A stretch of DNA of 35,027 bases from an uncultured Klebsiella sp. (GCA_964459345.1 CAYWMC010000001.1:1-35027), one strand, 5' to 3'. Positions 17,146-35,027 are shown, counted from the first letter of the stretch. Made by a program: numbers and translations. Notes: a model not told the origin generated them from the sequence alone.

Positions 17146-17669
17146 CAAGGTCCAGCGTTCCATGTTGCAGTCATTTCAGTCAGTCGGCGCGCCATTTCGG
17201 CGCCTTTTGTCGAGCGCGCATGCCAGTGAATCAGTCGCCCCGGGCCGGCATTTTCAAGGGAGAGCTCCAGGTCTGGAGCAGGTAAAAACCCCCGGCCTTT
17301 CTCCGCCCACTCCACCACGCAAAGATTCACTTCTTCAAAATATTCCAAAACTCCAAGAAATTCAACTTCTTCCGGGGTGTTTATGCGATAAAGGTCGAAG
17401 TGATAGATCGAATACCTTGTCTCCTCATAGGGTTCCACCAAAGTGTAGGTAGGACTTTTGACAGCGCCCTGATGGCCATAGCCCCGCAACAAGCCCCGCG
17501 TCAGCGTGGTTTTGCCAGCCCCGAGGTCCCCCGATAGAAACAATCGCCCCCCCGTGCAGACGCGCTCCGGGCTGCCGTCTGCAGCGGGAGTACTGGTCAC
17601 CAGCGCGAGCAGGCGCCCCATCTCCACCGTGGCTTCCTCGTCGGCCAGATAGCATGCAGATCCGTTCAT
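17145..17669 (-). CDS. tsaE: tRNA t6A37 biosynthesis ATPase TsaE (YjeE)
   Basis: It has the GDLGAGKTTLTRGLL Walker A motif and YHFDLYR. Synteny nnr-tsaE-amiB supports the call. Confidence 0.9.
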   Translation of the reverse strand: MNGSACYLADEEATVEMGRLLALVTSTPAADGSPERVCTGGRLFLSGDLGAGKTTLTRGLLRGYGHQGAVKSPTYTLVEPYEETRYSIYHFDLYRINTPEEVEFLGVLEYFEEVNLCVVEWAEKGRGFLPAPDLELSLENAGPGRLIHWHARSTKGAEMARRLTEMTATWNAGP

Positions 17670-22230: not shown

Positions 22231-23031
22231 ATGTCAGATTCAATCCCTCTGGACAAAAGCCCCGGACGCTGTCTGCCCGCCCTGGTGGCGGCACTGTTGA
22301 TGGTGCTTGGCAGCCATAGTGCCGCGCAGCCGCTGGTCGACCCTTTCGTGCTGGAAACCCAGGACGTCGCCGGCGAGTTCGCCTTCGTGCGTCTGCAATA
22401 TGACAACTTCTACAGCGACGGCTTTCGCTCCGGCACCTGGCGCACCGACTTTCCCAGCGCCGACTCCAACTTCCTGCGCGGCGTGTCGCGACTGACCAAT
22501 GTGCGCGTCATGCGCGAACCGATAGTGCTGCGCTTCGATGACGACGAGATTTTCGACTACCCGTTCCTGTATGCCCTGGAAATGGGGCGCAATGGCGGAC
22601 CATGGTTCACGCCGGCAGAGCAGCAGAACATGCGGGAATATCTGTTGCGAGGTGGTTTTCTGCTGATCGATGACTTCTGGGGCACTCGACAGTGGGACAA
22701 TTTCTACCGTGCTTTCACAGAAGTGTTTCCTGACCGGCAGATCATCGAACTGCCGCCGGATCACGAGATATTCCGCAGCTATTACGATATCGACGGCCCG
22801 CAGATGATCCCTGTGATTGGCAACCCGGAGAACTACCCCGAACAGGATGTGGACAGGGCGACCAACCATGCCATTCTGGATGACGCGGGACGCGTGATGG
22901 TGCTGATCAACTGGAACTCGGACATGGGCGATGGCTGGGAACACACCTACGACCCCAGCTATCCGACACGGTATGCCAATCTGGCCTACCAGCTGGGCAT
23001 CAATTATCTGATCTATTCGCTGACCCATTGA
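22231..23031 (+). CDS. Exported DUF4159 domain protein (class-I glutamine-amidotransferase-like fold)
   Basis: It has a Sec signal. FAFVRLQYD, YPFLYALEMG, REYLLRGGFLLIDDFWG and DHEIF match my recollection of DUF4159. Confidence 0.7.
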   Translation: MSDSIPLDKSPGRCLPALVAALLMVLGSHSAAQPLVDPFVLETQDVAGEFAFVRLQYDNFYSDGFRSGTWRTDFPSADSNFLRGVSRLTNVRVMREPIVLRFDDDEIFDYPFLYALEMGRNGGPWFTPAEQQNMREYLLRGGFLLIDDFWGTRQWDNFYRAFTEVFPDRQIIELPPDHEIFRSYYDIDGPQMIPVIGNPENYPEQDVDRATNHAILDDAGRVMVLINWNSDMGDGWEHTYDPSYPTRYANLAYQLGINYLIYSLTH

Positions 23032-23971
23032 GTGCAGTCTGCTCGCGCCCTTCGCGCAGCGATGCACAGTAGTCTTCCGCGGAAACTGCCGGCGTGAACC
23101 ACAGGTAGTCATAGGGAAGCACGTCTGAAAACGCCTGCAGATAGTCCTGCGGGTTCTGCATCTCAGGGTTCACTTCCATGATCCCCACACTCACGACCGG
23201 GCCGTCCACAGCAGGCAGATAATTTGTCACCCCCAGATCGCGGCGCGCGTGAAAATTGCCTGCGATCAGCACGTGGACACCCTGCTCGCCTGCACCAATA
23301 CTCCTGGCCATGCTGGCATCTCGCGCCTGCTGCACGCGAACCATGGCCGGAAACTGACTCTCGGGCAACATGCCGCAGTGACTCTCATCGATCTCGGTGT
23401 ACAGCCTTTCCACCTGTGCGGCGCCCAGGGCCGAAGCCACTTCTTCGGGAAGCTCTGCGCCGTACACAGACATCATCTCGTCCATGCTGATATTGGCAGC
23501 GCGCAGCGGCACTCCCGCACGGGCAGTGTCCAGGATCAGCGGGCCATACAGATCCCATTGCCAGCCTTCCTCGTCCCACTGCAGGTGCGACTTGACTGCA
23601 CTTTCCGAAGCAAGGTCCACGCCTGCGAGGGTGTCCAGCGCCGCCTTCTGGCTGGAATCGAGCATCTCGAAACTCACCACGCCAAGATTGCCTGAGGCGT
23701 TCAATGCGGCGAGTGTTTCGCGCTGAATGGCATGGTGATCGGGGTTGTCATGCTTCTCGCCGAGAATTGCCACGCGCGACTCCTGGAGAACCGCCAGCAG
23801 CTGTGCCTGGTTGATGAAGGCATCGGCACGCGCGTCCCAGATTTTTCCGGTGAGGGCGTGTTCGACATACAAAGGGGACTGCCAGGAGGAGGCCGCATCA
23901 GCGATCTGATTGGCCGAGGAACAGGCATTCAGTAAAGACAGAAGAACTAGGGCGGCGCTCGGCAGTTTCAT
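23000..23971 (-). CDS. ChaN-family (haem/iron-associated, Tiki-superfamily) lipoprotein
   Basis: It has a lipobox (LLSLLNAC) and the ILGEKHDNPDHH motif. Its 3' end overlaps the DUF4159 gene by 32 nt in convergent orientation. Confidence 0.7.
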   Translation of the reverse strand: MKLPSAALVLLSLLNACSSANQIADAASSWQSPLYVEHALTGKIWDARADAFINQAQLLAVLQESRVAILGEKHDNPDHHAIQRETLAALNASGNLGVVSFEMLDSSQKAALDTLAGVDLASESAVKSHLQWDEEGWQWDLYGPLILDTARAGVPLRAANISMDEMMSVYGAELPEEVASALGAAQVERLYTEIDESHCGMLPESQFPAMVRVQQARDASMARSIGAGEQGVHVLIAGNFHARRDLGVTNYLPAVDGPVVSVGIMEVNPEMQNPQDYLQAFSDVLPYDYLWFTPAVSAEDYCASLREGREQTALNGSANRSDN

Positions 23972-23992
23972 GGCGTTCCTGATATCGCAGTG

Positions 23993-24487
23993 CTATTCGG
24001 GATTTTCCGGATATTCAAAATGCTGCAGGGTAGCAATACCGGGCTGCAATTCGGCCCAGTGTTCAATGGGCAAGCTCAGTGTCACGAGTCCGCAGGTGGG
24101 AATATTGTCGATACCGGCCCGGGCCAGGTCATTCGCAAGATCGGTGAGCGCCGGATTGTGAGCCACCAGCATGGCGCTGTCAGCCGACTCGTCGAAGAAG
24201 CTGATCAGCTGTTGCAGCTTGGGGCTGCCCGCCAGATAGATCTGCCGGTTCTCCTGAATGCAGTCAGGCCCCTTCCCCAGCACGTCGCAGACTATGCGCG
24301 CCGTGCTCAACGCACGCACTGCCGGGCTGCTGACAACCAGGTCGACACTAACCCCACGAGCCTTCAGTCGGGCGGCCATTTCCGGCGCGTCCAGAACGCC
24401 GCGTTCATCAAGGGGTCGGTCGTAATCTTTTTGGTCGGGCGCCGCCCAGCTCGATTTTGCGTGTCGGAGCAGATAAAGCGTCTTCAT
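23993..24487 (-). CDS. SixA-like histidine phosphatase family protein
   Basis: It is trimmed to ATG 24487 (MKTLYLLRHAKS is the RHG catalytic motif). AHNPAL is the second catalytic His region. It ends 21 nt upstream of chaN. Confidence 0.75.
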   Translation of the reverse strand: MKTLYLLRHAKSSWAAPDQKDYDRPLDERGVLDAPEMAARLKARGVSVDLVVSSPAVRALSTARIVCDVLGKGPDCIQENRQIYLAGSPKLQQLISFFDESADSAMLVAHNPALTDLANDLARAGIDNIPTCGLVTLSLPIEHWAELQPGIATLQHFEYPENPE

Positions 24488-24595
24488 GGGTCGGATGAAA
24501 TCCTCGGGTTGCGAAGGGCTGGCCAATGACCCTGCCGGGAGCGAGAGTTGCCGGGCATTCTACGCGAATACGGGGGTCTGGCCAGAAAAAGCGGC

Positions 24596-24675: not shown

Positions 24676-26400
24676 TCAATAAGCGGCTGCGCCCCCTGCG
24701 CTGCGGGGATCCGAGGTTGCCTCGATCGTGCCGTCCTGCACCACGATGGAGTTGGCATCGCCGTAGGCAAACCCCGCCTCTTCGAAGCCACGGTGCCCCA
24801 TGGCTTCCAGAGTGGAGCGGGTCTCGACACTGATGGAATCACGCTCGAAGCGGATCTGGTCGGGCTTCCACTGGTGATAGAAACGCGGACTCGCCACCGC
24901 TTCTTCCACGTCCATGCCGTGATCGATCACGTTCATCACGATATGGAGAACCGTATTGATGATGGTTGAGCCGCCCGGAGACCCGGTGACAAGTACGGTG
25001 GCCCCGTCCTTGACGACAATCGTCGGTGTCATCGAGCTGAGCATGCGTTTGCCAGGCTCGATCTTGTTGGCTTCGCCACCCAGAAGCCCGTACATGTTGG
25101 GGCTGCCGGGCTTGGCAGAGAAGTCATCCATTTCGTTGTTGAGCAGGAAGCCGGCGCCGGGCACCACGATGCGATTGCCGTAGCTGCCATTCAGCGTGGT
25201 GGTCACTGACACTGCATTGCCCTGTCCGTCCACGACGGAGTAGTGCGTGGTGTCCATGCTCTCGTCTACCCAGTTGCCGGCGAAGATCTCTTCGCTGTCG
25301 CTGGCGGCCTGCGGGTCCATGTCCTCGAAACGCTCCAGGGCATAGTCCTTGCTGATCAGCTTGTCGATGGGCACGGGATAGAAGTCGGGATCACCCAGGT
25401 GCTCGGCGCGATCGGCATAGGCACGACGCAGTGCCTCCACTGTCAGATGCACAGTCTGGGAACTGCCCCAGCCAAGGGTGCCGATGTCGTAAGGCTCCAG
25501 CATGTTCAGAATCTGCATCAGCACCACGCCGCCGGAAGACGGTGGGGGCATTGACCATATCTCATAGCCGCGATAGTCGCCGCGAATCGGCTCGCGCCAC
25601 ACCACATCGTAGGACTCGAGGTCTTCGTGACTGATCAGTCCGCCATTGCGCTGCATCTCGGCAACAATCAGGTCGGCGGTGGGCCCCTTGTAGAATCCAT
25701 CACGCCCCTGTTCAGACACTCGTTTCAAGCTCTCGGCCAGGTCTGCCTGCACAAACAGATCGCCTGCACGGTAGGGCGAGCCGTTGTTGCTGAAGATGGC
25801 CTGCGATGCCGCGTGGCGCTCGAAGTAGGGCATGGTGTCGCTGAAGTCGCCGGCAAGATCTTCGTTCAGCACGAAGCCTTCTTCCGCCAGTGCGATGGCC
25901 GGTGCCAGCACCTGCTCACGTGTCATCGTGCCGTGCTTTTCCAGCGCGTCGAGCATGCCGGCCACAGAGCCCGGCACGCCGGAAGCCTGCAGGCTGAACA
26001 GCGAAAGCTCGCGGTCCACATCGCCGTTGGCATCCAGGAACATGTCGGTGGAGGCGGTCAGAGGCGCCTTCTCGCGGTGGTCCTGCGTCAGCACTTCACC
26101 ATCGGCCAGGCGAATGACCATGAAGCCACCCCCGCCAATGTTGCCGGCGGAGGGATACGTCACGGCCAGAGCGAAGCCCACGGCAACGGCAGCGTCAATG
26201 GCATTGCCCCCCTGCCGGAGTATCTCCACACCCACTTCAGAGGCCAGCGCCGAGCGGGAGCTGACAGCCCCGTTGCTGCCCGAGACCGTATTGGCAAACG
26301 CGCCGCCACCGAAGCCCTGCAGCACAACCAGCAGCGCCACCAGCATGCGCGCCAGGGGCTTTCTGAACGTCAGTGATCTGATCGAGACGGCTTTCAACAT
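24676..26400 (-). CDS. ggt: Gamma-glutamyltranspeptidase (periplasmic Ntn hydrolase)
   Basis: It has a signal peptide. The autoprocessing/nucleophile region DTTHYSVVD is present, along with GSPGGSTIINTV. GGAG is upstream. It starts 30 nt after the oxidase gene. Confidence 0.93.
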   Translation of the reverse strand: MLKAVSIRSLTFRKPLARMLVALLVVLQGFGGGAFANTVSGSNGAVSSRSALASEVGVEILRQGGNAIDAAVAVGFALAVTYPSAGNIGGGGFMVIRLADGEVLTQDHREKAPLTASTDMFLDANGDVDRELSLFSLQASGVPGSVAGMLDALEKHGTMTREQVLAPAIALAEEGFVLNEDLAGDFSDTMPYFERHAASQAIFSNNGSPYRAGDLFVQADLAESLKRVSEQGRDGFYKGPTADLIVAEMQRNGGLISHEDLESYDVVWREPIRGDYRGYEIWSMPPPSSGGVVLMQILNMLEPYDIGTLGWGSSQTVHLTVEALRRAYADRAEHLGDPDFYPVPIDKLISKDYALERFEDMDPQAASDSEEIFAGNWVDESMDTTHYSVVDGQGNAVSVTTTLNGSYGNRIVVPGAGFLLNNEMDDFSAKPGSPNMYGLLGGEANKIEPGKRMLSSMTPTIVVKDGATVLVTGSPGGSTIINTVLHIVMNVIDHGMDVEEAVASPRFYHQWKPDQIRFERDSISVETRSTLEAMGHRGFEEAGFAYGDANSIVVQDGTIEATSDPRSAGGAAAY

Positions 26401-26430: not shown

Positions 26431-28026
26431 TCAGGCGCTTGTGGCCTCGGCGCGGACGCGGGCGTCCAGATCAGCCAGAGCGACGTGTGCCGATTGGATG
26501 GCGCTTTCCATCCAGGCTGTGTGGTGACTGACCTGGTCGCCGATACACCAGTAACGTCCATCCACAGAACCCTGCAGCCTGGCGAAGATCGCCTGCTCTT
26601 CCGGGGTCTCGACGTTCCAGCGTGCGGAGCAGCCCAGCATGTAGTTCATGCGGTGCCACGCAATGGTGACGCCTTTCTCGACCTGCTGACGGTAATCCGG
26701 ATGCACTTTCTCGCCCTGAGCAATCATCGCTTCGATGCGCTGTTCCTGGGTCATGCGCGTGAATGGCATGCCGTTGCCGTAATCGTAGGCAGCAAGGACC
26801 ACGCCCTTCGCCTTGTGAATGCCGTGCGGCGGGTACCAGATCTGGCGGATAGGCTGATTGGTCCAGCTGATGCCGCCGTAGATGCCCTGCTTCTCCCAGA
26901 AGCGTTCCTTCGCCTGGAAGGCCCCCTTGTAGGCGGTGCCGCGGCGAATGTATTTCATGGCCTGCACATAGTCGGCCGGCAGGTTGTTCTCGATGCCGCT
27001 CATGAAATGGCTGGGGATGCAGTTGAAGCAGTAGTCGGCTTCGATGGCGTGAGTCTGCCCGTCCTGGCGATACTCGACGGTGACGCCCTTGTCAGTCAGA
27101 TTGGCGCTCAGGACAAACGCGCGGTACTTGATCTTGCCTTCCAGCTGACGCGTGAATCCTGCAGGAATGCGGTCCATGCCGCCGGTGGGCTGCATCAGCA
27201 TCGGGCCGGTTTCACCTTCGTTGTCGCTGATGACCTGGCGGGCGGCATTGGCACGCAGCAGATTGCGCACATCGATCATGTCCTTCTGGACGGTGTGAGT
27301 GACATAGTTGCCGGAGGCGTAGCCTGCGCGGGTGCTGCCGGTGTAACGGTTGTCGCGTCCAAGATCGCCGAACGCGCGGATCATGCCCATGACCAGCTCA
27401 GCTTCTTCGTCGGTGAAAGGCTGATCCAGTTCGAGATCGGTCATGGCCTTGGACATCAGTTCAGCCATGAAGCCCCTCACATTGGTGGTGAATTCGGCAT
27501 TGCGAAAAGGCTTGCCGCCCATGACGGCGTCGTCCTGAATCCAGGCCATCTTGTTTTCGTTGATGAACAGCTCGAGGTTGACGCCCAGCTCCTTGCAGTA
27601 GTGCAGGGTATTGCTGTGCGTGCTGGGGATACGGGCAGCGCCGCCATTGAAGAACAGGTGCGGCTCATCGTCCCATTCGCAGTACTGGGGATTGCCGATC
27701 TCGTCGATCAGAGTGCCGGCGCGGACGGTGAAGATGCGGCCGCCGGCACGATGGGAACCTTCCAGAACGGTGCAGTCATAGCCGGCCTTGCCAAGCTCAT
27801 AGGCCACGGTGAGTCCGGAGATACCGGCGCCAAGGATGACAACCTTGCGATTCTGGTTGCTCAGCCGGAGCAGTTCGGGAACAGAGGCTGTTGCGCTGCT
27901 GGGGATCATGCCCAGCGCCCCGGTAATGCCGAGGACGGCAGCGGTACCGCCTGTGGCGGCGATCAGATTCAGGAATTCTCGACGGGTAACTGGAGTTGAC
28001 ACTTGCTGATCCTCTTTGGAAATCAT
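26431..28026 (-). CDS. Tat-exported FAD amine oxidase, L-amino-acid-oxidase-like
   Basis: The twin-arginine signal TRREFLNLIAATGGTAAVLG is present. It has the dinucleotide fold VVILGAGISGLTVAYEL..VLEGSHRAGGR. GGMDRIPAGF resembles the LAAO motif GGMDKLP. Confidence 0.8.
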   Translation of the reverse strand: MISKEDQQVSTPVTRREFLNLIAATGGTAAVLGITGALGMIPSSATASVPELLRLSNQNRKVVILGAGISGLTVAYELGKAGYDCTVLEGSHRAGGRIFTVRAGTLIDEIGNPQYCEWDDEPHLFFNGGAARIPSTHSNTLHYCKELGVNLELFINENKMAWIQDDAVMGGKPFRNAEFTTNVRGFMAELMSKAMTDLELDQPFTDEEAELVMGMIRAFGDLGRDNRYTGSTRAGYASGNYVTHTVQKDMIDVRNLLRANAARQVISDNEGETGPMLMQPTGGMDRIPAGFTRQLEGKIKYRAFVLSANLTDKGVTVEYRQDGQTHAIEADYCFNCIPSHFMSGIENNLPADYVQAMKYIRRGTAYKGAFQAKERFWEKQGIYGGISWTNQPIRQIWYPPHGIHKAKGVVLAAYDYGNGMPFTRMTQEQRIEAMIAQGEKVHPDYRQQVEKGVTIAWHRMNYMLGCSARWNVETPEEQAIFARLQGSVDGRYWCIGDQVSHHTAWMESAIQSAHVALADLDARVRAEATSA

Positions 28027-28091
28027 TGCTTCTCATGACACAGCGTCGCGCAAGCAATCCACTCGCGACACAGGGGGTTTTCACAGGCTGG

Positions 28092-28146
28092 ATTATTCCG
28101 GGCCGGCCCGGGAAAGTCCTCCCAAAAATCTTCTGAAAACCTCCTA
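28092..28146 (-). promoter_or_regulatory. Copy C of the shared promoter/operator element, upstream of the oxidase-ggt operon
   Basis: The minus strand reads TAGGAGGTTTTCAGAA GATTTTTGGG AGGACTTT (28146-28113), then 15 nt, then AATAAT (28097-28092). The ATG lies 66 nt downstream of the AATAAT hexamer. Confidence 0.6.
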
Positions 28147-28196
28147 ATTCCGCTGCACACCAGAGTATTCCTGCCCCATCGCAGCCAGCGTCCGGC

Positions 28197-28225
28197 TTGA
28201 CCTTGCGCCGTTTCTAGGCTCTACT
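28197..28225 (+). promoter_or_regulatory. Possible sigma70-type promoter of the regulator gene
   Basis: TTGACC (28197-28202), a 17-nt spacer, then TCTACT (28220-28225). This rests on a weak hexamer match only. Confidence 0.25.
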
Positions 28226-28292
28226 TCAGTTACTCATTCAGTACGCGCATCCAAAGACGGACGCTGTCCGCTCACTCAAGAACGATCAAGCC

Positions 28293-30386
28293 GTGGCATC
28301 CGACAAAATCAACAAGTACAGGATCGGCGATTGGGAAGTATCGCTGACAACATGCACCCTCACCCAGGGCGAGAACGAGGTGAAAGTCACCCCTCGCAGC
28401 ATGGACGTGCTTGATTGCCTTGCGCAGAATCCTGGCGACGTCATCAGTCACGAAGAACTCCTGAAACGCTTCTGGCAGGGCACCTTCCCGTCCGATCATG
28501 CAGTGCACAAGGCCATCGCCGAACTGCGCAGCGCCCTGGGCGACGACGCACACAATCCGATCTACATTCGCACCATTCCGAAGCGCGGCTACTCCCTGAT
28601 CGCGGAAGTCGTGCGCCCGCAGATGCCGGGCGCCGAGGGCACAAACGAGTCGGGAGCCGAACTGTTGTCGGCCGCGACAGCACGCAGCTCACCGCCATTC
28701 ACTGCCTTGCTGGACAGGCGCCTGGTGGCCGGTATCGCGGCTGCCGTGGTTCTACTCGCAATGCTGATCTGGCCCGGCAGCCAGGTCGTCAGCGACAAGG
28801 ACGAGGTAGTCCGCCTTGCCGTGCTGCCCTTCATCAATCGCGGCCTCAATACCGAGAACCAGTTTCTGACAGACGGGCTGCGGGAGTCCCTGGTGGACGG
28901 CCTGTCGAAACTCAGCCACATGGAAGTCCTCTCCCCGTCACGCGGCCTGGCCGATGAAGAGGAGAGCCGCCGCTCCGAGCGCGCCGCCGACCGCGGCCGG
29001 GATCTCAATGCCGACCACGTGCTGCACGGCAGTGTGCAGACCGCCGAAGGGCGCATGCGGGTAACGGTGCAGTTGACCCGCGCGAGCGATGGCGTCCACC
29101 AGTATTCCGAGCAGTTCGACCTGCCGATCGAAGACCTCTTTGCCCTGCAGGACCAGATTGTCTCGAATGTGGTCAGCGCCCTGAGCGTCCATCTGGACGA
29201 GACAGAGCGTGAACAGATGCTGGACTGGGGCACCACCAATGCCATCGCCTATGAGCGTTTTCTGCGTGGTGAGTTCTACTACAACCAGTTCAGCCCCGAT
29301 GACTTCCAGCGCGCCATCGACTACTACATGTCCGCCCTGGAGGCCGATCCGGGATTCGTGAACGCTTACCATGGCGCGGCCACCGCCGCCAACAACATGG
29401 CCGTTTACAGCAGCAGCGCCCGCATTCAGGAACTGAGCGAGCTGATCAGCAGCATCCACCGGGAAGTCGCCCGTATCGCCCCCGACAGCGAGGCGCTCCA
29501 TGCGATCAACGAAATCAAGCTGCGCATGAGCGGCACCAGTCAGGTACAGCAGGAAGTGCAGTTGCGCGAACAGATTCTGTCCGGCAATCCACCCGACTAC
29601 GCCATGGCCCATTACGCGCTGTTCCTCATCGGCGCCCGCCTGTATGAAGAGGCCTCACAGTTTCTGGACAAAGCGAACGAAGTCGGCCCGTTCGAGATTT
29701 CTCCCGACGAAGTCTGGAGCTATCGCAGCAATATTCAGGCGCCACGCGCCATGCTGCTGTCTGCCAAGGGCCAGCTTCAGGAACGCCCCTACCATGTGGG
29801 TTTTCTGGGCACTGTTGCCACGAACCTTGCCCTGGCGGGCGACTTCCGCCAGGCCGGGATGTACCTGAGCCGCCAGCGCGATGTGGACAAGGACGGCATC
29901 CTTGCGCATTACAGCGAGGCGGTGATTGGCTTCCTCAGCGGCGAAATCGTGCTCGGCAACGAGGCCTATCAACGCATCATGAGTGCAGGTGAAGACTTCA
30001 ATTTCACCAAGGGCGCCCTCAGCTTCATGCTGGGCGACGTGGAAACCGGCGTGGCCTTCTGGCGCAGCATCCCGCCGCTGCAGAAGCGTCGCCTGTTCAA
30101 TGTCACCCACGGCGCGGAGAAGTATTTTCCAGACGCCGTTCTGGAGGACCCCCGCTACCAGAGCGTCCTGGAAGAACTCGATTTCGGCATTTCCTGGCAG
30201 CGCCGGCTCATGGAAGGAGTCATCGCCATGGAAGCGGTGACTGGCGTCAGCCTGAGCGAAAGCGCTACCAAGGCCTACGAGTCCGGCACCTTCATGTCCC
30301 GCAACAATCTCTGGAAACCCGAAGACTGGGCAGAACTGGAGTCCCGCAAACTTGCCGGAATGCAGCCCCGCGGCATTCTTGACTGA
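28293..30386 (+). CDS. ToxR/CadC-like membrane-anchored transcriptional regulator: N-terminal OmpR/PhoB-type winged helix, one TM segment, periplasmic TolB-N-like + TPR-like domain
   Basis: YRIGDWEV...LTPRSMDVLDCLAQNPGDVISHEELLKRFWQG...VHKAIAELRSALGD...YIRTIPKRGYSLI is the wHTH domain. The TM segment is LVAGIAAAVVLLAMLIW. It is followed by RLAVLPFINRG. The GTG start is uncertain. Confidence 0.8.
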   Translation: MASDKINKYRIGDWEVSLTTCTLTQGENEVKVTPRSMDVLDCLAQNPGDVISHEELLKRFWQGTFPSDHAVHKAIAELRSALGDDAHNPIYIRTIPKRGYSLIAEVVRPQMPGAEGTNESGAELLSAATARSSPPFTALLDRRLVAGIAAAVVLLAMLIWPGSQVVSDKDEVVRLAVLPFINRGLNTENQFLTDGLRESLVDGLSKLSHMEVLSPSRGLADEEESRRSERAADRGRDLNADHVLHGSVQTAEGRMRVTVQLTRASDGVHQYSEQFDLPIEDLFALQDQIVSNVVSALSVHLDETEREQMLDWGTTNAIAYERFLRGEFYYNQFSPDDFQRAIDYYMSALEADPGFVNAYHGAATAANNMAVYSSSARIQELSELISSIHREVARIAPDSEALHAINEIKLRMSGTSQVQQEVQLREQILSGNPPDYAMAHYALFLIGARLYEEASQFLDKANEVGPFEISPDEVWSYRSNIQAPRAMLLSAKGQLQERPYHVGFLGTVATNLALAGDFRQAGMYLSRQRDVDKDGILAHYSEAVIGFLSGEIVLGNEAYQRIMSAGEDFNFTKGALSFMLGDVETGVAFWRSIPPLQKRRLFNVTHGAEKYFPDAVLEDPRYQSVLEELDFGISWQRRLMEGVIAMEAVTGVSLSESATKAYESGTFMSRNNLWKPEDWAELESRKLAGMQPRGILD

Positions 30387-30500
30387 GCCACTGCGCAGCC
30401 GCAAGCTCCCACCCTTCCCGGCAACGTCCTGCCCGCCAATCCTCACCAAACCCCTGAGCAATTCGCGAAAACCCCAATGAATTCAATCCTCGAACAGCTC

Positions 30501-30555
30501 TAGGAGGTATTCAGAATGTTTTAAGTAGGACTTTGGGGAGGTCACTGCAGATAAT
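30501..30555 (+). promoter_or_regulatory. Copy A of the shared promoter/operator element, upstream of the TonB-dependent receptor
   Basis: TAGGAGGTATTCAGAA TGTTTTAAGT AGGACTTT (30501-30534), then 15 nt, then GATAAT (30550-30555). The ATG is at 30652. Confidence 0.6.
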
Positions 30556-30651
30556 CGGGGTGCTATCAAGGTCGGGCCCCTATACCCACAGTACAAGGAA
30601 CCCGGTCTCTCTTTCGCAACTAAAGAAACGAATGAAAAGGGATAAGTAACT

Positions 30652-33189
30652 ATGAAAATATCAAATCTGCTGACTCTGTCGTCGGTTGCCGCCCTGCTGG
30701 GCTCAGTGGCAGCGACTGCACCAGTCGCCATGGCCCAGGCGCCAGCGGCTGAAGAAATCGAAGAAGTTGTAATCATCGGTTCACGCCGCGCTCCGCGCAC
30801 GGCGCTTGACTCCGCTGCGCCCGTAGACGTGTTCTCTGCCTCCGACTTCCAGGACCAGGGCACCGCCGACATGAACGACCTGCTGCGCAACCTGGTTCCA
30901 ACGTTCAACGTGGACGTGCAGGACATCAACGACTCCAGCAGCCTGGTACGCCCCGCTACTCTGCGCGGCCTGCCTGCAGACGACACGCTGGTGCTGGTGA
31001 ACGGCAAGCGCCGTCACCGCTCCGCCGCTGTGCAGTTCGGCCGTCAGGGCACGCACTTCGCAGACGTGTCCCAGATTCCTCCGATTGCACTGCGTCAGGT
31101 AGAAGTTCTGCGTGACGGCGCGGCCGCTCAGTACGGTTCCGACGCCATCGCCGGCGTGATCAACTTCCAGCTCAAGGAAAATCGTGAAGGTCTGTCAGTA
31201 GAAACCAAGACAGGCATTCTGACCGAGACCAATGACGGCCAGCTCAACTACGTTGCAGCCAACCTCGGCCTGCCGCTGGGCAACAATGGTTTTGCCAGCC
31301 TGAGCATGGACATGACCAACCAGAAGCGCAGCGACCGCAGCATTCAGCGCGGCGACGCGCAGACGCTGATCAACAACGGCAACACTGCAGTGCGTGTGAA
31401 CGCCCAGCACCAGGGTCTGCCAGACACCGAGATCGTCAACCTGTTTGCGAACGTCGGTCTGGACCTGGGCAATGACCAGGAGCTTTACTCCTTCACCGGT
31501 TACAGCGAGAAGGAAGTGGAACTCGGCTTCTTCTTCCGCAACCCTGAAAACCGTGGTGGCGTGTTCACCAGCGGCGCCAACCAGCTGTTCTTCGACCAGA
31601 CGCCTGGCACTGGCACAACCTGCCCGACCATTCCGCGCGGCGTGAATGCAACAACCAAAGTCACCAGCTCCGTTGCAGCACGCAATGCCGGCCTGGCTGA
31701 CCCGACCTGCTTCACCTTCCTGGAGTGGTTCCCAGGTGGTTACACCCCTGACTTCGGCGGCAAGAACGTCGACATGTCCAACGTGACCGGCCTTCGTGGC
31801 GAACTCAACGACGGCACCACGTACGACCTGAGCCTGGGCAATGGTTTCTCCGAGATGACCTACATGATCTCGAATACCACCAACCCGTCCATGGGCCCGA
31901 ACTCTCCTACCAGCTTCGAGCCAGGCATCTACACGACGATCGAGAACAACATCAACCTCGACCTGTCCAAGCCGTTCGACGTGGGCTTGTACTCGCCGCT
32001 GAACGTTGCCTACGGTCTGGAATGGCGTCGTGAGATCTTCAAGGTTGGTTCAGAAGATCAGGATTCCTACCGCATCGGCGAATACTCCAATCTTGGAGCA
32101 GGCGTGGGTTCTGACGGCTTCCAGGGTTTCGGCCCGGACCAGCAGGGCACCTGGGATCGCAAGAACTGGGCGATCTACGCTGACCTCGAAGTGGACGTCA
32201 CCGAGCAGCTGCTGCTGGGCGCCGCGATCCGTTACGAAGACTTCTACAACACCTTCGGCGGCACCACCAATGGCAAGCTGACAGCACGTTACGCGCTGAC
32301 AGAGACGACCAACATCCGCAGCACGATCAGCACGGGATTCCGCGCACCGTCACCGGGTCAGGCCAACATCTCCAACATCAGCACCGGCGTTGTAGACAGC
32401 ATCCCTGTGACACAGGGCCAGATTCCTCCGACCAACCCGATCTCTCAACTGTTCGGCGGCAAGGAACTGACTCCGGAAGAGTCCACCAACTACAGCATCG
32501 GTGTAGCGACAGAATTCGGCGGTCTTGATCTGACCATCGACTACTACCGCATCGACCTGGATGACCGCATCCTGAACTCTGCAACCTTCGACATCACGCC
32601 GGCGATTGCAGCGCAACTGGAAGCATCAGGCATCTCTGGTGCACGCAGCATCGTGTCCTTCAACTACTACACCAACGACATGTCCACCACCAACGAAGGT
32701 GTGGAAATCGTAGGTTCGTGGGGCATGGACTGGGAAGACTTCGGCAACACCGAGTTCGCCGCTTCCTGGGCCTGGACCAAGCAGGAGCTGACCAAGTTCA
32801 CACCTGGCCTGCTGACCCGCGCCAACGTGGCTGACCTGGAAGACGGTATCCCTGCGAACCGTGGCAACTTCCGCGCGAACCACACTCTGGGCGACTGGAG
32901 AGTCACGCTGCAAGCCAACTACTACGATGAGTACCTGTCAGTTCCAGCCAACGCCATTCCGGCGCGCGATTACTGGGTCGGCAGCGAGATCATCTTCGGC
33001 AGCGAAGTGGCCTACACCCTGCGTGACCGTTACACGTTCATCGTTGGTGCGGACAACATCCTCAATACGGCGCCTGAGAAGGTCCGTCCTGTGGATTTCA
33101 ACGCCACCACCAGCAACAAGTACGTCACTGGCGGCGCGTTCAGCCCGAACGGCGCCTTCTGGTACGCACGCTTCAAGATGGACATCTAA
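30652..33189 (+). CDS. TonB-dependent outer-membrane receptor (no N-terminal signalling extension)
   Basis: A signal peptide is followed directly by the plug start EEIEEVVIIGSR. VEVLRDGAAAQYGSDAIAGVINF is present. The barrel is long. Confidence 0.9.
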   Translation: MKISNLLTLSSVAALLGSVAATAPVAMAQAPAAEEIEEVVIIGSRRAPRTALDSAAPVDVFSASDFQDQGTADMNDLLRNLVPTFNVDVQDINDSSSLVRPATLRGLPADDTLVLVNGKRRHRSAAVQFGRQGTHFADVSQIPPIALRQVEVLRDGAAAQYGSDAIAGVINFQLKENREGLSVETKTGILTETNDGQLNYVAANLGLPLGNNGFASLSMDMTNQKRSDRSIQRGDAQTLINNGNTAVRVNAQHQGLPDTEIVNLFANVGLDLGNDQELYSFTGYSEKEVELGFFFRNPENRGGVFTSGANQLFFDQTPGTGTTCPTIPRGVNATTKVTSSVAARNAGLADPTCFTFLEWFPGGYTPDFGGKNVDMSNVTGLRGELNDGTTYDLSLGNGFSEMTYMISNTTNPSMGPNSPTSFEPGIYTTIENNINLDLSKPFDVGLYSPLNVAYGLEWRREIFKVGSEDQDSYRIGEYSNLGAGVGSDGFQGFGPDQQGTWDRKNWAIYADLEVDVTEQLLLGAAIRYEDFYNTFGGTTNGKLTARYALTETTNIRSTISTGFRAPSPGQANISNISTGVVDSIPVTQGQIPPTNPISQLFGGKELTPEESTNYSIGVATEFGGLDLTIDYYRIDLDDRILNSATFDITPAIAAQLEASGISGARSIVSFNYYTNDMSTTNEGVEIVGSWGMDWEDFGNTEFAASWAWTKQELTKFTPGLLTRANVADLEDGIPANRGNFRANHTLGDWRVTLQANYYDEYLSVPANAIPARDYWVGSEIIFGSEVAYTLRDRYTFIVGADNILNTAPEKVRPVDFNATTSNKYVTGGAFSPNGAFWYARFKMDI

Positions 33190-33228
33190 GTCCGTCGCAC
33201 TTTCTTAGTGCAATGTAAGTCAATGCAA

Positions 33229-33258
33229 AGGGTGCCACTTCGGTGGCACCCTTTTCTT
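33229..33258 (+). terminator. Strong Rho-independent terminator after the receptor gene
   Basis: The perfect 10-bp stem AGGGTGCCAC / GTGGCACCCT has a TTCG loop. It is followed by TTTCTT. Confidence 0.85.
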
Positions 33259-33276
33259 ACCAGGAGATTCGCGCAT

Positions 33277-33906
33277 ATGTTTCGCAAAGTAGTAGTTCAA
33301 TTGCTGGCAGTTTTCGTCATGGCTCTGGCCACTGCGGGCAGCTGGGCGGCCGAGCCACACGAGCCGGTCAATCATCGATTCTGTTTCACCTGCCACGGCA
33401 CCGACGGCATTGGCAGCGAAGGCATCAACGGCCCGCGCCTGGCCGGCATGGAGCCTTGGTATCTCAAGCGTCAGCTGGAGCTGTTCCGGGCCGGTGGGCG
33501 TGGCAAGCATCCTTCTGACTATCACGGCATGGAAATGCAGCCCATGGCGGTCATACTGACTGACGAGAATATCGCCGACATTCTGGAGTGGGCAGCCACC
33601 TGGGAGTATGTCCCGGCAACGCCAACCATCAGCGGTGGCAATGCAGATCGCGGTCGCCAGCTCTATCAGGCCTGCGCGAGCTGTCACGGCGCTGCGGCAG
33701 AAGGCAGCGAAGCCATGAATGCCCCCCAGCTGGCCGGTCAGAATGACTGGTACCTCGTTACACAGCTGAAGAACTTCAAGGCAGGGTATCGCGGCGTGGA
33801 CCCTCTGGATCAGTACGGCGCGATGATGCGCACCATGACTTCAGGACTTGCCGACGACCAGGCCATTGTGGACGTTGTCAGCTACATCAACACACTGGGA
33901 CGCTGA
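33277..33906 (+). CDS. Periplasmic di-haem cytochrome c, c4-like
   Basis: It is trimmed to ATG 33277 (CAGGAG 10 nt upstream, signal MFRKVVVQLLAVFVMALATAGSWA). It has two CxxCH motifs (CFTCH, CASCH). Each is followed by P(R/Q)LAG...Y...QL..F..G.RG and Met-rich ligand regions. Confidence 0.85.
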   Translation: MFRKVVVQLLAVFVMALATAGSWAAEPHEPVNHRFCFTCHGTDGIGSEGINGPRLAGMEPWYLKRQLELFRAGGRGKHPSDYHGMEMQPMAVILTDENIADILEWAATWEYVPATPTISGGNADRGRQLYQACASCHGAAAEGSEAMNAPQLAGQNDWYLVTQLKNFKAGYRGVDPLDQYGAMMRTMTSGLADDQAIVDVVSYINTLGR

Positions 33907-33949
33907 AGCGCGTCCAATTGCACAGACCCCTACTACAAGAGGCCTCAAC

Positions 33950-34426
33950 ATGACCAGATTCACCAAAGTAGTTTCCCTTTCTGCCGCCCTGTTCGCCGCC
34001 GCCTTCGCGGTCAGCAGCAGCGCTCAGGAAATCGTTCGCACCGGCGAAGGCCGCAATTTCTTCAACAACATCTTCATTCCAGCCGGCGCCGAGACGCTGT
34101 ATCTGAGTGGGGCTGGCGCAGATCCGCTTCCTGATGGCAGCTACGGCGACATGGAGCAGCAGACGGTCGACACCTTCAACAAATTCAAGGCCACGCTGGA
34201 AGAGCAGGGCTGGTCCATGGCTGACATCGTGCAGGTGCGTGTATTCGGCGTGGCCGGAGACGACGGCACCTTCGACTTCGCCGGCTTCAACCGCGGTTAC
34301 CAGCAATTCTTCGGCACCGAAGAGAACCCCATGAAGCCAGTGCGCTCTGTGGTGGAAATCGCTGATCTGGTGGTAGACGGATGGTTGGTCGAGATCGAAA
34401 TCCGCGCATCCAGAATGCCGAAGTAA
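33950..34426 (+). CDS. Exported RidA/YjgF/UK114-family protein (paralogue 1)
   Basis: It is trimmed to ATG 33950 (AAGAGG upstream). The Sec signal is MTRFTKVVSLSAALFAAAFAVSSSA. The family core is present, with KPVRSVVEI aligning to E. coli RidA PARSCVEV, so the imine-deaminase Arg is retained. Confidence 0.8.
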   Translation: MTRFTKVVSLSAALFAAAFAVSSSAQEIVRTGEGRNFFNNIFIPAGAETLYLSGAGADPLPDGSYGDMEQQTVDTFNKFKATLEEQGWSMADIVQVRVFGVAGDDGTFDFAGFNRGYQQFFGTEENPMKPVRSVVEIADLVVDGWLVEIEIRASRMPK

Positions 34427-34436
34427 TGCCCTCCCG

Positions 34437-34473
34437 CTGGCAGGAAGGGACCACTCTCCCCCCTTCCTGCCAG
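34437..34473 (+). other. Perfect 13-bp hairpin 11 nt after the RidA-1 stop, with no U-tract
   Basis: CTGGCAGGAAGGG (34437-34449) pairs with CCCTTCCTGCCAG (34461-34473). The loop is 11 nt. The following sequence is CCGCTTCTGCC. Confidence 0.5.
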
Positions 34474-34597
34474 CCGCTTCTGCCGCTCCAGACATCCCTC
34501 GATTGACTCAAAAACAAGCTTCTCCCTTTTCTCCCGGAACTCCGCAAATTTCTCCCACTGGCCGGACATGATCCGGAATCAGTGTTTTATCGCCTTG

Positions 34598-34619
34598 TTC
34601 TGCAAGCCATTTCTGCAAG
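34598..34619 (+). repeat. Direct repeat TTCTGCAAG x2 (period 13 bp) abutting copy B of the shared element
   Basis: The copies are at 34598-34606 and 34611-34619 and are identical 9-mers. Confidence 0.5.
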
Positions 34620-34672
34620 TAGATATTCAGAACAAAACAGGTAGGACTTTCAGCAGCGCTCTTCCCGATACT
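34617..34672 (+). promoter_or_regulatory. Copy B of the shared promoter/operator element, upstream of the second RidA gene
   Basis: AAGTAGATATTCAGAA CAAAACAGGT AGGACTTT (34617-34650), then 16 nt, then GATACT (34667-34672). The ATG is at 34784. Confidence 0.55.
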
Positions 34673-34783
34673 GCGTGTGCCTTTACGCTCGCATCAACAT
34701 GAACATGCAGACGCTGAGAAGGTGAGAGCCAGCAGGCCCCTTTTTCAGCGCCACACGCCAACCCATCGACGAGGAACCGCCCT

Positions 34784-35027
34784 ATGAAAACTCTGTTCAA
34801 GACTGCATGCCTGACAACTGCCCTGGCTGCGACGCTTTTCGCTGCCACTGCCAGCGCCCAGGAGATTGTCCGCACCGGTGAAAGTCGCGTGCTGTTCAAC
34901 AACATCTACATACCCGCAGGTGCCGAGACGCTGTATCTGAGCGGTGCTGGTGCTTCCGCGGCCGCAGACGGCAGCTGGGGCAACATGGAGCAGCAGACGG
35001 TCAACATCTTCGAGAAATTCAAGGCAA
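34784..35027 (+). CDS. Exported RidA-family protein (paralogue 2), 5' part only, running off the window
   Basis: It is absent from the ORF track because it has no stop in the window. My own translation is MKTLFKTACLTTALAATLFAATASAQEIVRTGESRVLFNNIYIPAGAETLYLSGAGASAAADGSWGNMEQQTVNIFEKFKA. GAGGAA lies 7 nt upstream. By hand count, 43 of 56 mature residues are identical to paralogue 1. Confidence 0.8.
   Translation, partial: MKTLFKTACLTTALAATLFAATASAQEIVRTGESRVLFNNIYIPAGAETLYLSGAGASAAADGSWGNMEQQTVNIFEKFKA

Follow-up and report, generated by a model that had tools for sequence, protein, structure and literature searches.

A triple-repeat element predicted to act as operator and promoter for a CadC/ToxR-like regulator in an amino-acid-oxidizing gene cluster

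SARP regulators of actinomycetes (AfsR/DnrI/ActII-ORF4) bind, through an OmpR-type wHTH, heptamer direct repeats that have 11- or 22-bp periodicity and overlap the -35 of cluster-situated target promoters. ToxR and TcpP of Vibrio cholerae (ompU/toxT) are bitopic wHTH-TM-periplasmic regulators that occupy tandem direct repeats adjacent to the core promoter, the wing pointing to the start site. ToxR recognizes its AT-rich sites mostly through DNA shape; activation is class I via alpha-CTD, and a -35 is retained for sigma region 4. The PHO box of PhoB (E. coli pstS and phoA) is built from 11-nt direct repeats in which 7 positions are conserved and 4 less so, bound head-to-tail with a contact to sigma-70 (PMC4415409). 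CadC, which regulates E. coli cadBA, uses AT-rich head-to-head sites far upstream, with Cad1 at -153 to -113 and a consensus of T-T-A-x-x-x-x-T (PMC5430869). With respect to target genes, lao-cccA-ridA of Gluconacetobacter diazotrophicus combines a TAT-exported flavin amine or amino-acid oxidase with RidA and a c-type cytochrome (PMC5053998), and in P. putida (NicA2/Pnao-CycN) such 'oxidases' are dehydrogenases passing electrons to the cytochrome (PMC9396064). The papers on these two systems describe no regulator or operator. The cluster analyzed here has the same target-gene combination and additionally contains a TonB-dependent receptor (TBDR), a second RidA, a CadC-like regulator and, in some genomes, ggt.

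In the 35,027-nt stretch of DNA that we analyzed (the window), this cluster carries three copies of a 34-bp element, which together span 6.6 kb and are each oriented toward their own downstream gene (Table 1). The pattern TTCAGAA-N10-AGGACTTT has three exact matches in the window where 0.02 are expected, and none of 100 shuffled sequences reached three matches. Allowing up to two mismatches revealed no match in the window beyond the three copies, and two further AGGACTTT octamers, at 17451 and 22069, are isolated and were rejected as sites. An earlier note on this DNA had proposed these copies, their positions and directions and a match beyond chance, all of which we confirmed; recounting from the sequence also reproduced its identities of 28/34 for A versus C and 24/34 for A versus B. 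Distances from element to start codon are about 117 nt (A), 86 nt (C) and 133 nt (B). Using a PWM built from orthologous sites only, with copy B left out, we obtained scores of 60.5 bits for copy C, 55.0 for copy A and 19.4 for copy B, while the best remaining position of the 35-kb window scored -0.9.

Table 1. Coordinates of the features in the window, ordered by position
Feature	Position	Strand	Remarks
Gamma-glutamyltransferase (ggt)	24676..26400	-	30 nt downstream of oxidase gene
FAD L-amino-acid-oxidase homologue	26431..28026	-	Pfam Amino_oxidase; Rhodococcus LAAO 2jae, 4.9e-73
Predicted -10 AATAAT, oxidase(-ggt) promoter	28092..28097	-	15 nt past copy C; start predicted near 28085
Copy C, 34-bp predicted operator	28113..28146	-	TAGGAGGTTTT/CAGAAGATTTT/TGGGAGGACTT+T, three 11-bp direct repeats; faces oxidase gene
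Regulator's own promoter-like region, TTGACC-N17-TCTACT(T)	28197..28226	+	Read from sequence; conserved along with spacer
Proposed binding protein, 697-aa CadC/ToxR-like bitopic regulator	28293..30386	+	Pfam, PDB sequence matches, AF2, Foldseek
Copy A, 34-bp predicted operator	30501..30534	+	TAGGAGGTATT/CAGAATGTTTT/AAGTAGGACTT+T; faces TonB-dependent receptor operon
Predicted -10 GATAAT, TBDR-cytochrome c-RidA-1 operon	30550..30555	+	15 nt past copy A; start predicted near 30562
TonB-dependent receptor	30652..33189	+	Plug domain from residue 52, plus barrel
Dihaem c-type cytochrome	33208..33906	+	Domain and family matches
RidA-1, Sec signal peptide	33950..34426	+	
Copy B, weaker predicted operator	34617..34650	+	AAGTAGATATT/CAGAACAAAAC/AGGTAGGACTT+T; faces RidA-2
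Predicted -10 GATACT, RidA-2 promoter	34667..34672	+	16 nt past copy B
RidA-2, tandem paralogue, Sec signal peptide	34784..35027	+	Continues past window end

The element consists of three tandem 11-bp direct repeats, TAGGAGGTWTT / CAGAAGGTTTT / TAGGAGGACTT, in each of which a G-rich core of 7 bp (nAGGAGG) precedes a T-rich tail of 4 bp. Written as core plus tail, the units are nAGGAGG+TWTT, CAGAAGG+TTTT and nAGGAGG+ACTT, and the T-tails are well conserved too. Over 80 distinct sites, self-identity peaked at shifts of 11 (0.60) and 22 (0.65), compared with 0.09–0.45 at other shifts, and PWM matches shifted by 11 nt were also seen. In a clear phylogenetic footprint across sites of regulators with 99% to 55% identity, most of the 34 positions carry 1.3–2.0 bits and the flanks values near 0, with information content climbing again at the -10 hexamer.

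The hexamers that the earlier note had placed downstream of the three copies, and their distances, were likewise recovered (Table 1); in the orthologous cluster L002 the counterpart of the copy B hexamer is GATAAT. The spacer between element and hexamer is 15–17 nt at 78 of the 80 distinct orthologous sites, and the predicted -10 is GATAAT, AATAAT, CATAAT or TTTAAT at 73/80. Relative to the predicted start the repeats cover about -61 to -28, AGGACT occupies the -35 position with a 3/6 match to TTGACA, and no sigma-70 -35/-10 pair scoring at least 9/12 was found across 27900-35027. This agrees with the activator-type layout suggested previously, with a -10-like hexamer at constant spacing and no usable -35; the element appears to stand in for the -35 hexamer, its distance from the predicted sigma-70 -10 being fixed. 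One detail had to be corrected: because the third repeat overlies the -35 position, what had been described as an 8-nt 'spacer' is really the T-tract of the middle 11-bp repeat. The third repeat, unlike the first, carries GAC, the core of TTGACA, and could therefore double as a weak -35. The regulator gene is not placed behind an element copy and has an ordinary promoter of its own, a role probably played by the TTGACC-N17-TCTACT(T) region; upstream of this gene, the block AAGTAGAG..CAGAA....GGTCAAG is kept in 33 distinct loci.

The regulator comprises a wHTH domain (residues ~1-108), a disordered linker, a TM helix (~139-159) and a periplasmic part of ~530 aa with an alpha/beta (TolB-N-like) domain at ~173-300 and a TPR-like helical domain at ~303-690. 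Its sole Pfam match is Trans_reg_C (residues 28-102, 1.2e-17), and Pfam revealed no receiver domain. By sequence, the best PDB matches of its DNA-binding domain are those of CadC (5ju7, 3e-17) and ToxR (4e-10), and the protein matches the NCBIfam CadC model at 5e-33, which is below that model's cut-off. In the AF2 model (pLDDT 78.7), residues 111-140 are disordered, 139-159 form a helix and 173-690 make up folded domains; Foldseek matched the model best to the DNA-binding domains of CadC and ToxR (TM 0.85-0.88) and also to TolB and TPR proteins. Pfam, sequence and Foldseek thus agree with the wHTH domain that the earlier note had assigned to this product, and place the protein in the CadC/ToxR type. 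A hydrophobic stretch, LVAGIAAAVVLLAMLIW, occurs at ~143-159 with RR just before it, and from these data we infer a cytoplasmic wHTH, a single TM and a periplasmic sensor domain. The recognition helix (D68-R79) is largely invariant in 37 regulator homologues with 52-100% identity, matching the near-invariant DNA core.

Scanning 185,579 species genomes (596 Gb) with the strict pattern yielded 49 stretches, 45 of which are oxidase-regulator-TBDR/cytochrome c clusters in which the element adjoins the regulator gene. The other four, from unrelated phyla and without cluster genes, look like chance matches. No strict-pattern site was found away from the cluster in the carrier genomes, and a metagenome scan added nothing. 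The strict pattern overlooks weak sites, for example copy B, and the regulon therefore appears strictly local for strong sites only. The element is kept in every orthologous cluster examined, down to ~52% regulator identity: it precedes the L-amino-acid-oxidase gene in every orthologous locus containing that intergenic region, and the downstream-side element follows the regulator gene in all loci, before the TonB receptor or, in loci lacking the receptor gene (L006/7, L010 and L047), before cytochrome c. Locus L011 shares only the oxidase-regulator-TBDR-cytochrome c-RidA module in a different neighborhood, and both sites are present: the element follows the regulator and not the neighborhood. 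The CadC/ToxR-like regulator is the only transcription-factor gene common to all clusters. The earlier proposal of an element that is no generic repeat and travels with its target genes is thus supported on both points, but its three copies are not equal: A and C are strong, while copy B (19 bits) is found in the closest relatives only. Copy B is 33/34 identical in L002 despite differing flanks and is reduced to a mere remnant in L004.

Like the PHO box, the element has 11-nt direct-repeat units that each pair about 7 well-conserved with about 4 A/T-rich positions, an OmpR/PhoB-type wHTH as its predicted head-to-tail binder, and a normal -10 with the -35 replaced. It differs in having three units instead of two, a G-rich AGGAGG core instead of CTGTCAT, and a last unit that ends 16 nt before the -10, whereas the PHO box ends ~10 nt before it. 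The three units are kept in all lineages, in contrast to the two-unit dimer sites of PHO-box-like operators, and instead of a phosphorylated response regulator, the protein proposed to bind is one-component, membrane-anchored and without a receiver. ToxR and TcpP share the bitopic architecture and the tandem repeats beside the core promoter, and the ToxR DNA-binding domain is the structurally closest (8b4b, TM 0.88). However, the repeats here are G-rich, highly sequence-specific and overlie the -35, no ToxS/TcpH-type partner gene adjoins the regulator, and the ~530-aa periplasmic domain has a TolB-like plus TPR fold. CadC comes closest to the DNA-binding domain by sequence, is likewise a stand-alone bitopic regulator with a periplasmic alpha/beta and helical domain (3ly8 match), and regulates an adjacent amino-acid-related operon, as predicted here; its sites differ from the three direct repeats that lie here between -61 and -28. 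The element does not follow the pattern of ToxR operators (A-tract direct repeats) and CadC Cad1, which are AT-rich and upstream of an intact core promoter. Since the structurally characterized ToxR and TcpP are class I activators working from AT-rich sites through alpha-CTD, and CadC sites are AT-rich and far upstream, a G-rich triple repeat over the -35 is without precedent within the ToxR-like group. We rejected the SARP-regulated promoter class: the regulator is membrane-anchored and has no BTAD match in Pfam, and 19 nt separate the end of the last heptamer from the -10, compared with about 8 in SARP promoters.

All the sequence-based checks proposed in the earlier note turned out in its favor. 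Taken together, it is likely that the element is an operator-promoter of the adjacent CadC/ToxR-like regulator, which would bind in tandem and activate the amino-acid-oxidizing cluster; the system is of a familiar kind and the prediction is well supported. The 34 bp would combine operator and promoter, with the cytoplasmic wHTH domains of the membrane-anchored regulator occupying the repeats in tandem on one helix face, in a PHO-box-like, head-to-tail manner. The promoter-proximal protomer would fill the place of the missing -35 hexamer and recruit or position sigma-70 RNA polymerase at the nATAAT -10, 15–17 nt downstream, so that sigma-70 promoters without a -35 element are activated. In this window three operons would be switched on, and two in the majority of genomes, by a signal presumably sensed in the periplasm by the TolB-like/TPR domain. 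We infer that the adjacent regulator binds the element and that it activates rather than represses; the number of bound protomers, the contact made with the polymerase, the points where transcription begins and the signal that induces it likewise belong to this predicted scheme.

The same protein and site could also work with the opposite sign, as a repressor sitting on the -35 region until a periplasmic signal releases it, in which case the blocked promoter would be a weak constitutive sigma-70 promoter, AGGACT-N17-GATAAT. A repressor would fit a site over the -35 equally well, and ToxR is known to repress as well as activate. We nonetheless consider repression unlikely, given the poor -35 match and the lack of any promoter passing the 9/12 scan. 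Moreover, activators of the OmpR/PhoB family usually have this layout, with three in-phase direct repeats that extend to -61 and point to the start, and the regulator's own promoter indicates that, where an activator is not required, this lineage does employ a good TTGACC. Somewhat less probable again is an unlinked binder, for example an OmpR/PhoB-family response regulator, with the adjacent wHTH protein merely a member of the cluster. While 11-bp direct repeats are generic to that whole family, all 45 genuine genomic occurrences adjoin the regulator gene without strong sites elsewhere in those genomes, and an unlinked factor lacking any other strong target would be unusual. Sites and regulator were also relocated together in the L011 module, and the regulator gene has its ordinary promoter with no element copy in front.

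Action at the RNA level, through a mini-ORF, a ribosome stand-by site or a leader structure, is suggested by AGGAGGT, a perfect Shine-Dalgarno sequence: copy A reads AGGAGGT-N7-ATG TTT TAA, and an ATG lies 7 nt past the first AGGAGGT in this copy and in several downstream-side orthologues. However, AAG replaces this ATG in all oxidase-side copies and in the downstream-side copies of L004 and L006, and copy C would remain untranscribed, being upstream of the two divergent promoters predicted there. Folding was no better than for shuffled sequences (z = 0.27, -0.48 and +1.41), conservation is that of a sequence at a fixed distance from the -10 hexamer, and Rfam gave no match across the whole window at the gathering threshold, all of which leaves this explanation very improbable. 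Finally, three similar copies inside 6.6 kb might represent a dispersed repeat, a miniature mobile element (REP/MITE-like) or chance similarity, to which we assign almost no weight. Only 0.02 matches are expected by chance, and the occurrence of the element at this cluster only, among all the species genomes scanned, effectively refutes such an origin. The element also has no inverted termini, always faces a downstream gene, and is kept in lineages in which the flanking DNA has been randomized.

For the operator-promoter that we favor, the units predicted to be driven are oxidase(-ggt), TBDR-cytochrome c-RidA-1 and RidA-2. This retains the oxidase(-ggt), TonB receptor and RidA-2 targets of the earlier note and refines them, in that the TBDR unit also holds cytochrome c and RidA-1. 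The N-terminus of the oxidase carries a twin-arginine signal (TRREFL), and the true start of its gene is probably the GTG at 28002. Among orthologous clusters only some contain ggt, which is probably co-transcribed with the oxidase gene. The TonB-dependent receptor has no N-terminal signaling extension. Together, the products of these units would form a periplasmic system for the uptake and oxidative deamination of amino acids. A conserved RNA hairpin starts ~9 nt past the predicted start of the TBDR operon (30562).

Exact matches to TTCAGAA-N10-AGGACTTT occurred three times in the whole window, against a chance expectation of 0.02; allowing up to two mismatches added none in the window, and 0 of 100 window shuffles gave three. 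These matches are the cores of the three 34-bp elements (copies A, B and C) described in an earlier note, whose positions were confirmed exactly. On recount, its identities also held (28/34 for A versus C, 24/34 for A versus B), as did the spacers of 15, 15 and 16 nt to the hexamers GATAAT, AATAAT and GATACT in copies A, C and B. Judged by orientation, copy C is directed at the gene for an FAD L-amino-acid-oxidase (LAAO) homologue, copy A at that for a TonB-dependent receptor and copy B at the gene for RidA-2.

Genes and element copies in the window, and domains of the regulator. The gene map is from Pfam, NCBIfam and PDB sequence searches; element cores are exact TTCAGAA-N10-AGGACTTT matches.
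Feature	Position	Strand	Basis or remark
ggt	24676-26400	(-)	Pfam/NCBIfam/PDB sequence searches
FAD L-amino-acid-oxidase homologue	26431-28026	(-)	best PDB match Rhodococcus LAAO 2jae, 4.9e-73; TRREFL twin-arginine signal
Regulator	28293-30386	(+)	Trans_reg_C; divergent from oxidase gene
TonB-dependent receptor	30652-33189		Pfam/NCBIfam/PDB sequence searches
Dihaem cytochrome c	33208-33906		Pfam/NCBIfam/PDB sequence searches
RidA-1	33950-34426		Sec signal peptide
RidA-2	from 34784		Sec signal peptide
Element copy C	28113-28146	(-)	core 28113-28137
Element copy A	30501-30534	(+)	core 30510-30534
Element copy B	34617-34650	(+)	core 34626-34650
Regulator, wHTH	residues 1-108		AlphaFold2 model
Regulator, disordered linker	after wHTH, before TM helix		AlphaFold2 model
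Regulator, TM helix	residues 139-159		AlphaFold2 model
Regulator, alpha/beta domain	residues 173-300		AlphaFold2 model
Regulator, all-helical TPR-like domain	residues 303-690		AlphaFold2 model

The 34 bp consist of three tandem 11-bp units, TAGGAGGTWTT, CAGAAGGTTTT and TAGGAGGACTT. Among 80 distinct sites, self-identity reached 0.60 and 0.65 at shifts of 11 and 22, respectively (0.09-0.45 at other shifts), and secondary matches to a PWM built from orthologous sites alone were offset by exactly 11 nt; the supposed T-rich spacer therefore belongs to the middle repeat, as its tail. Information content in the aligned orthologous sites was high over the 34 bp, near zero in the flanks, and rose again at the hexamer 15-17 nt downstream. 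PWM scores were 60.5 bits for copy C, 55.0 for copy A and 19.4 for copy B, and the next best match in the window reached -0.9. The AGGACTTT octamer is over-represented in the window (5 observed versus 0.47 expected), and two more exact octamers lie at 17451-17458 and 22069-22076 (+); with no upstream repeats and PWM scores of -0.9 and -4.1 bits, these are not sites. An element this long and specific (about 55-60 bits) would suit use as a reporter for finding the inducing signal.

Across the 80 distinct sites, the hexamer was most often GATAAT (34), AATAAT (25), CATAAT (9) or TTTAAT (5), and the spacer after ...CTTT measured 15 nt in 55 sites, 16 nt in 19 and 17 nt in 4. At a 17-nt spacer the -35 position is occupied by AGGACT, a 3/6 match, and a consensus scan called no sigma-70 promoter of at least 9/12 in 27900-35027, although it also left uncalled the regulator's own TTGACC-N17-TCTACT because of the C at position 2 of its -10. 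The poor -35 reported previously is thus borne out, and the absence of a consensus promoter fits activator dependence. Upstream of the regulator gene, TTGACC-N17-TCTACT(T) at 28197-28226 (+) is conserved in 33 distinct loci, including its spacer (TTCTG.GC). On the minus strand the same segment reads AAGTAGAGCGCAGAAAC-N6-AGGTCAAG, which has a low PWM score and resembles a degenerate element minus one base (compare AAGTAGATATTCAGAAC in copy B and AAGTAGATATCAGAAC in L016, another genome stretch); an autoregulatory operator may overlap the regulator's -10 here.

By its regulator's homologues, the window belongs among uncultured Gammaproteobacteria near Pseudohongiella, and we compared orthologous loci whose regulators were 99% to 55% identical. 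All of these loci carried the element both on the oxidase side and immediately 3' of the regulator gene, so that it co-travels with the clusters, as expected of the regulon first proposed. Where the receptor gene is absent (L006/L007 and L010), the element precedes the cytochrome c gene instead. In locus L011 the neighbouring genes differ, and the module is retained with both sites, recognisable but somewhat drifted. Upstream of the cluster (22240-24529; same in L002-L009) lie syntenic genes for DUF4159, ChaN-like haem-binding, histidine-phosphatase and MarR-family proteins; this block is absent from L011 and is therefore not part of the mobile oxidase-regulator module.

We also scanned one genome per species (185,579 species, 596 Gb) with the strict pattern GKAGGTNNTNNGNANNNTTTNNGKAGGAC, which returned 49 stretches that were assigned by tblastn with the window's proteins. 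Forty-five were located at the oxidase-regulator-receptor/cytochrome cluster; their genomes are Pseudohongiellaceae-like, those of the isolates P. nitratireducens SCS-49 and Pseudohongiella sp. O18 among them. The other four, on Chloroflexi, Robiginitalea, Kofleriaceae and Bacillota contigs, lacked any cluster genes; we estimate that about 17 matches would be expected by chance. Within carrier genomes no strong site was found outside the cluster by this pattern, which would miss weak sites like copy B, and no PWM match above 5 bits lay away from the cluster in 624 kb of compared loci, chance loci excepted. The element is therefore no generic repeat, the outcome that would have counted most heavily against the original proposal, and the regulon appears local. 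A tolerant, 19-base-equivalent pattern meant to catch copy-B-like sites in metagenome contigs returned five unrelated low-GC contigs without cluster genes and also missed the window's own lineage, so that it is uninformative on extra regulon members. Neither the window's regulator nor the P. spirulinae homologue had a record under exact look-up. Several cluster-bearing MAGs (GTDB genome contigs L020, L031, L035, L049 and L053) carry 'Klebsiella' record titles, and with a Pseudohongiellaceae-type cluster these bins are probably mislabelled or contaminated.

The oxidase, regulator, cytochrome c and RidA-1 genes are constant across lineages, and the TonB receptor, ggt and second RidA are variable (receptor absent from L006/L007, L010 and L047; ggt and RidA-2 absent from L008, L009 and L010). 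The longest oxidase ORF opens with ATG at 28026, and orthologues are called from a GTG eight codons downstream, at 28002 (-); this GTG, 7 nt after AAAGAGGA, is the likelier start, and with it the TRREFL twin-arginine motif falls close to the N-terminus. Cytochrome c (209 aa in orthologues) and RidA-1 (158 aa) likewise start later than their longest ORFs. In L001, a 99%-identical strain, an extra 961-aa TonB receptor follows RidA-2 (L001 8828-11713), with an AT-rich upstream region and no element copy. This gene and the downstream DUF481 and glutamate-synthase-like genes have no PWM match above 5 bits and so fall outside the predicted regulon.

An LAAO, cytochrome c and RidA triad is known from the lao-cccA-ridA cluster of Gluconacetobacter diazotrophicus (PMC5053998), and the flavin amine 'oxidases' NicA2 and Pnao of Pseudomonas putida are dehydrogenases that pass electrons to cytochrome c (PMC9396064). 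All cluster products carry export signals, which, together with the TonB receptor and, in some genomes, GGT, point to a periplasmic pathway. We infer that the regulon serves periplasmic uptake and oxidative deamination of amino acids or gamma-glutamyl compounds, the resulting imine being hydrolysed by RidA; it is probably a module for harvesting nitrogen or carbon from these compounds.

The 697-aa regulator has a single Pfam domain, the N-terminal Trans_reg_C wHTH, which is closest by sequence to CadC (5ju7, 3e-17) and ToxR (4e-10). Searching with its AlphaFold2 model (mean pLDDT 78.7), Foldseek matched the DNA-binding domain to CadC and DNA-bound ToxR (TM 0.85-0.88) and the periplasmic part to the TolB N-domain, TPR proteins and, weakly, the CadC periplasmic domain. 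The protein fits the architectural definition of ToxR/CadC-like bitopic regulators. Its recognition helix (D68-R79) is mostly invariant among 37 homologues of 52-100% identity, in parallel with the near-invariant DNA core, and no other transcription-factor gene is common to all clusters. The subfamily (wHTH-TM-TolB-like-TPR) is common in Pseudohongiellaceae and related aquatic Gammaproteobacteria. Literature searches covering ToxR-like regulators and the cluster turned up neither a description of the subfamily nor a DNA site for it, and nothing relevant on a regulator of this architecture together with a TonB receptor.

Tandem-repeat operators for wHTH activators are textbook. The PHO box is built of 11-nt units, 7 positions of each being conserved and 4 less so, such direct repeats are bound head to tail by OmpR/PhoB-type wHTH domains, and PhoB contacts sigma-70 (PMC4415409). 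Because the element shares this unit structure and orientation and would extend from about -61 to -28, with its last unit where the -35 hexamer should be, we propose that the membrane-anchored regulator places two or three of its DNA-binding domains on the repeats and recruits sigma-70 polymerase to otherwise -35-deficient promoters. The earlier interpretation is supported in this form, refined to three 11-bp units, a weak copy B confined to close relatives and an apparently local regulon. It is doubtful that the likeness of this membrane-tethered ToxR/CadC-type factor to PhoB extends to class II activation, with a trimer on the three in-phase G-rich repeats replacing the -35; such an arrangement would tether two or three promoters of the 10-kb cluster to the inner membrane, where all the encoded proteins are exported. 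In a bolder extension, the TolB-like periplasmic domain would read the occupancy of the co-regulated TonB-dependent receptor, amounting to cell-surface signalling without a sigma/anti-sigma pair, but the receptor lacks a signalling extension and some clusters have no receptor gene.

Overlap of the site with the -35, and a GAC core that could serve as a weak -35, would suit a repressor operator for the same regulator, which we consider unlikely. Binding by an unlinked factor is quite improbable, being hard to square with the exclusive linkage of the element to the regulator gene. Very little probability attaches to an RNA or Shine-Dalgarno signal, which its AGGAGGT motif might suggest: the first AGGAGGT is followed by an ATG that lacks conservation, no predicted transcript includes copy C, fold z-scores were 0.27, -0.48 and +1.41, and no Rfam match was found. 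The chance that the copies are a mobile repeat or fortuitously similar is close to negligible, with three found where 0.02 were expected and the strict scan of species genomes tying the element to the cluster. On inspection of the sequence, ECF-sigma and sigma-54 promoters were ruled out by the canonical sigma-70 -10, the absence of GGAAC/CGTC or TGGCAC-N5-TTGC motifs and the lack of a sigma gene in the cluster; the SARP family was ruled out by the absence of a BTAD domain and the wrong distance to the -10.

The element fits the definition of an OmpR/PhoB-type tandem direct-repeat operator, save for having three units in place of two. It is unlike the known sites of ToxR and CadC, AT-rich sequences located upstream of a core promoter that is intact; CadC sites lie head to head at -153 to -113, whereas the element comprises direct repeats much closer to the start. 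Class II activation, if it applied, would depart from the class I, alpha-CTD-mediated mode established for ToxR and TcpP. A ToxR-like factor with a PhoB-like, -35-replacing site is the one less expected feature and, if true, would broaden the known ways in which such factors engage RNA polymerase. While the type of system is familiar, the regulon prediction is robust and comes from a little-studied lineage. It supplies a precise, conserved predicted operator for an uncharacterised subfamily of membrane-bound one-component regulators, ties the regulator to a periplasmic module (TonB receptor, TAT-exported L-amino-acid oxidase or dehydrogenase, cytochrome c, RidA and sometimes GGT) and is directly testable because cultured carriers exist (P. 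nitratireducens and Pseudohongiella sp. O18).

Copy B is restricted to the window's closest relatives (L001 and L002), and in L004 is reduced to a remnant, GGCAGGATTTT-16-CATAAT. Comparison of the window with L002 shows 33/34 identity in copy B but diverged flanks, so that the copy appears to be under selection. It would give the duplicated RidA-2 its own predicted promoter, downstream of a conserved GC-rich hairpin (CTGGCAGGAAGGG ... CCCTTCCTGCCAG, 34437-34473 (+)) directly after RidA-1. The terminator scan missed this hairpin because it lacks a T-run; L002 and L004 have hairpins of other sequence at the same place. Transcription of the receptor-cytochrome-RidA-1 operon probably stops at this hairpin, and RidA-2 would for that reason depend on copy B.

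Downstream of copy A, the leader of the TonB-receptor gene (30556-30651) contains a conserved 6-bp hairpin, GTCGGG ... CCCGGT, at 30571-30606 (+), followed by an invariant block, TCGCAAC...AAGAAACGAWTGAAAAGGG. Rfam had no match for it, nor for anything else in the whole window. Twelve orthologous leaders showed compensatory changes in three of its pairs and an invariant CCCACA in the loop, and hairpin and block could be an mRNA-stabilising or regulatory 5'-UTR element. The hairpin begins about 9 nt after the predicted transcription start, and its position and compensatory changes agree with that start.
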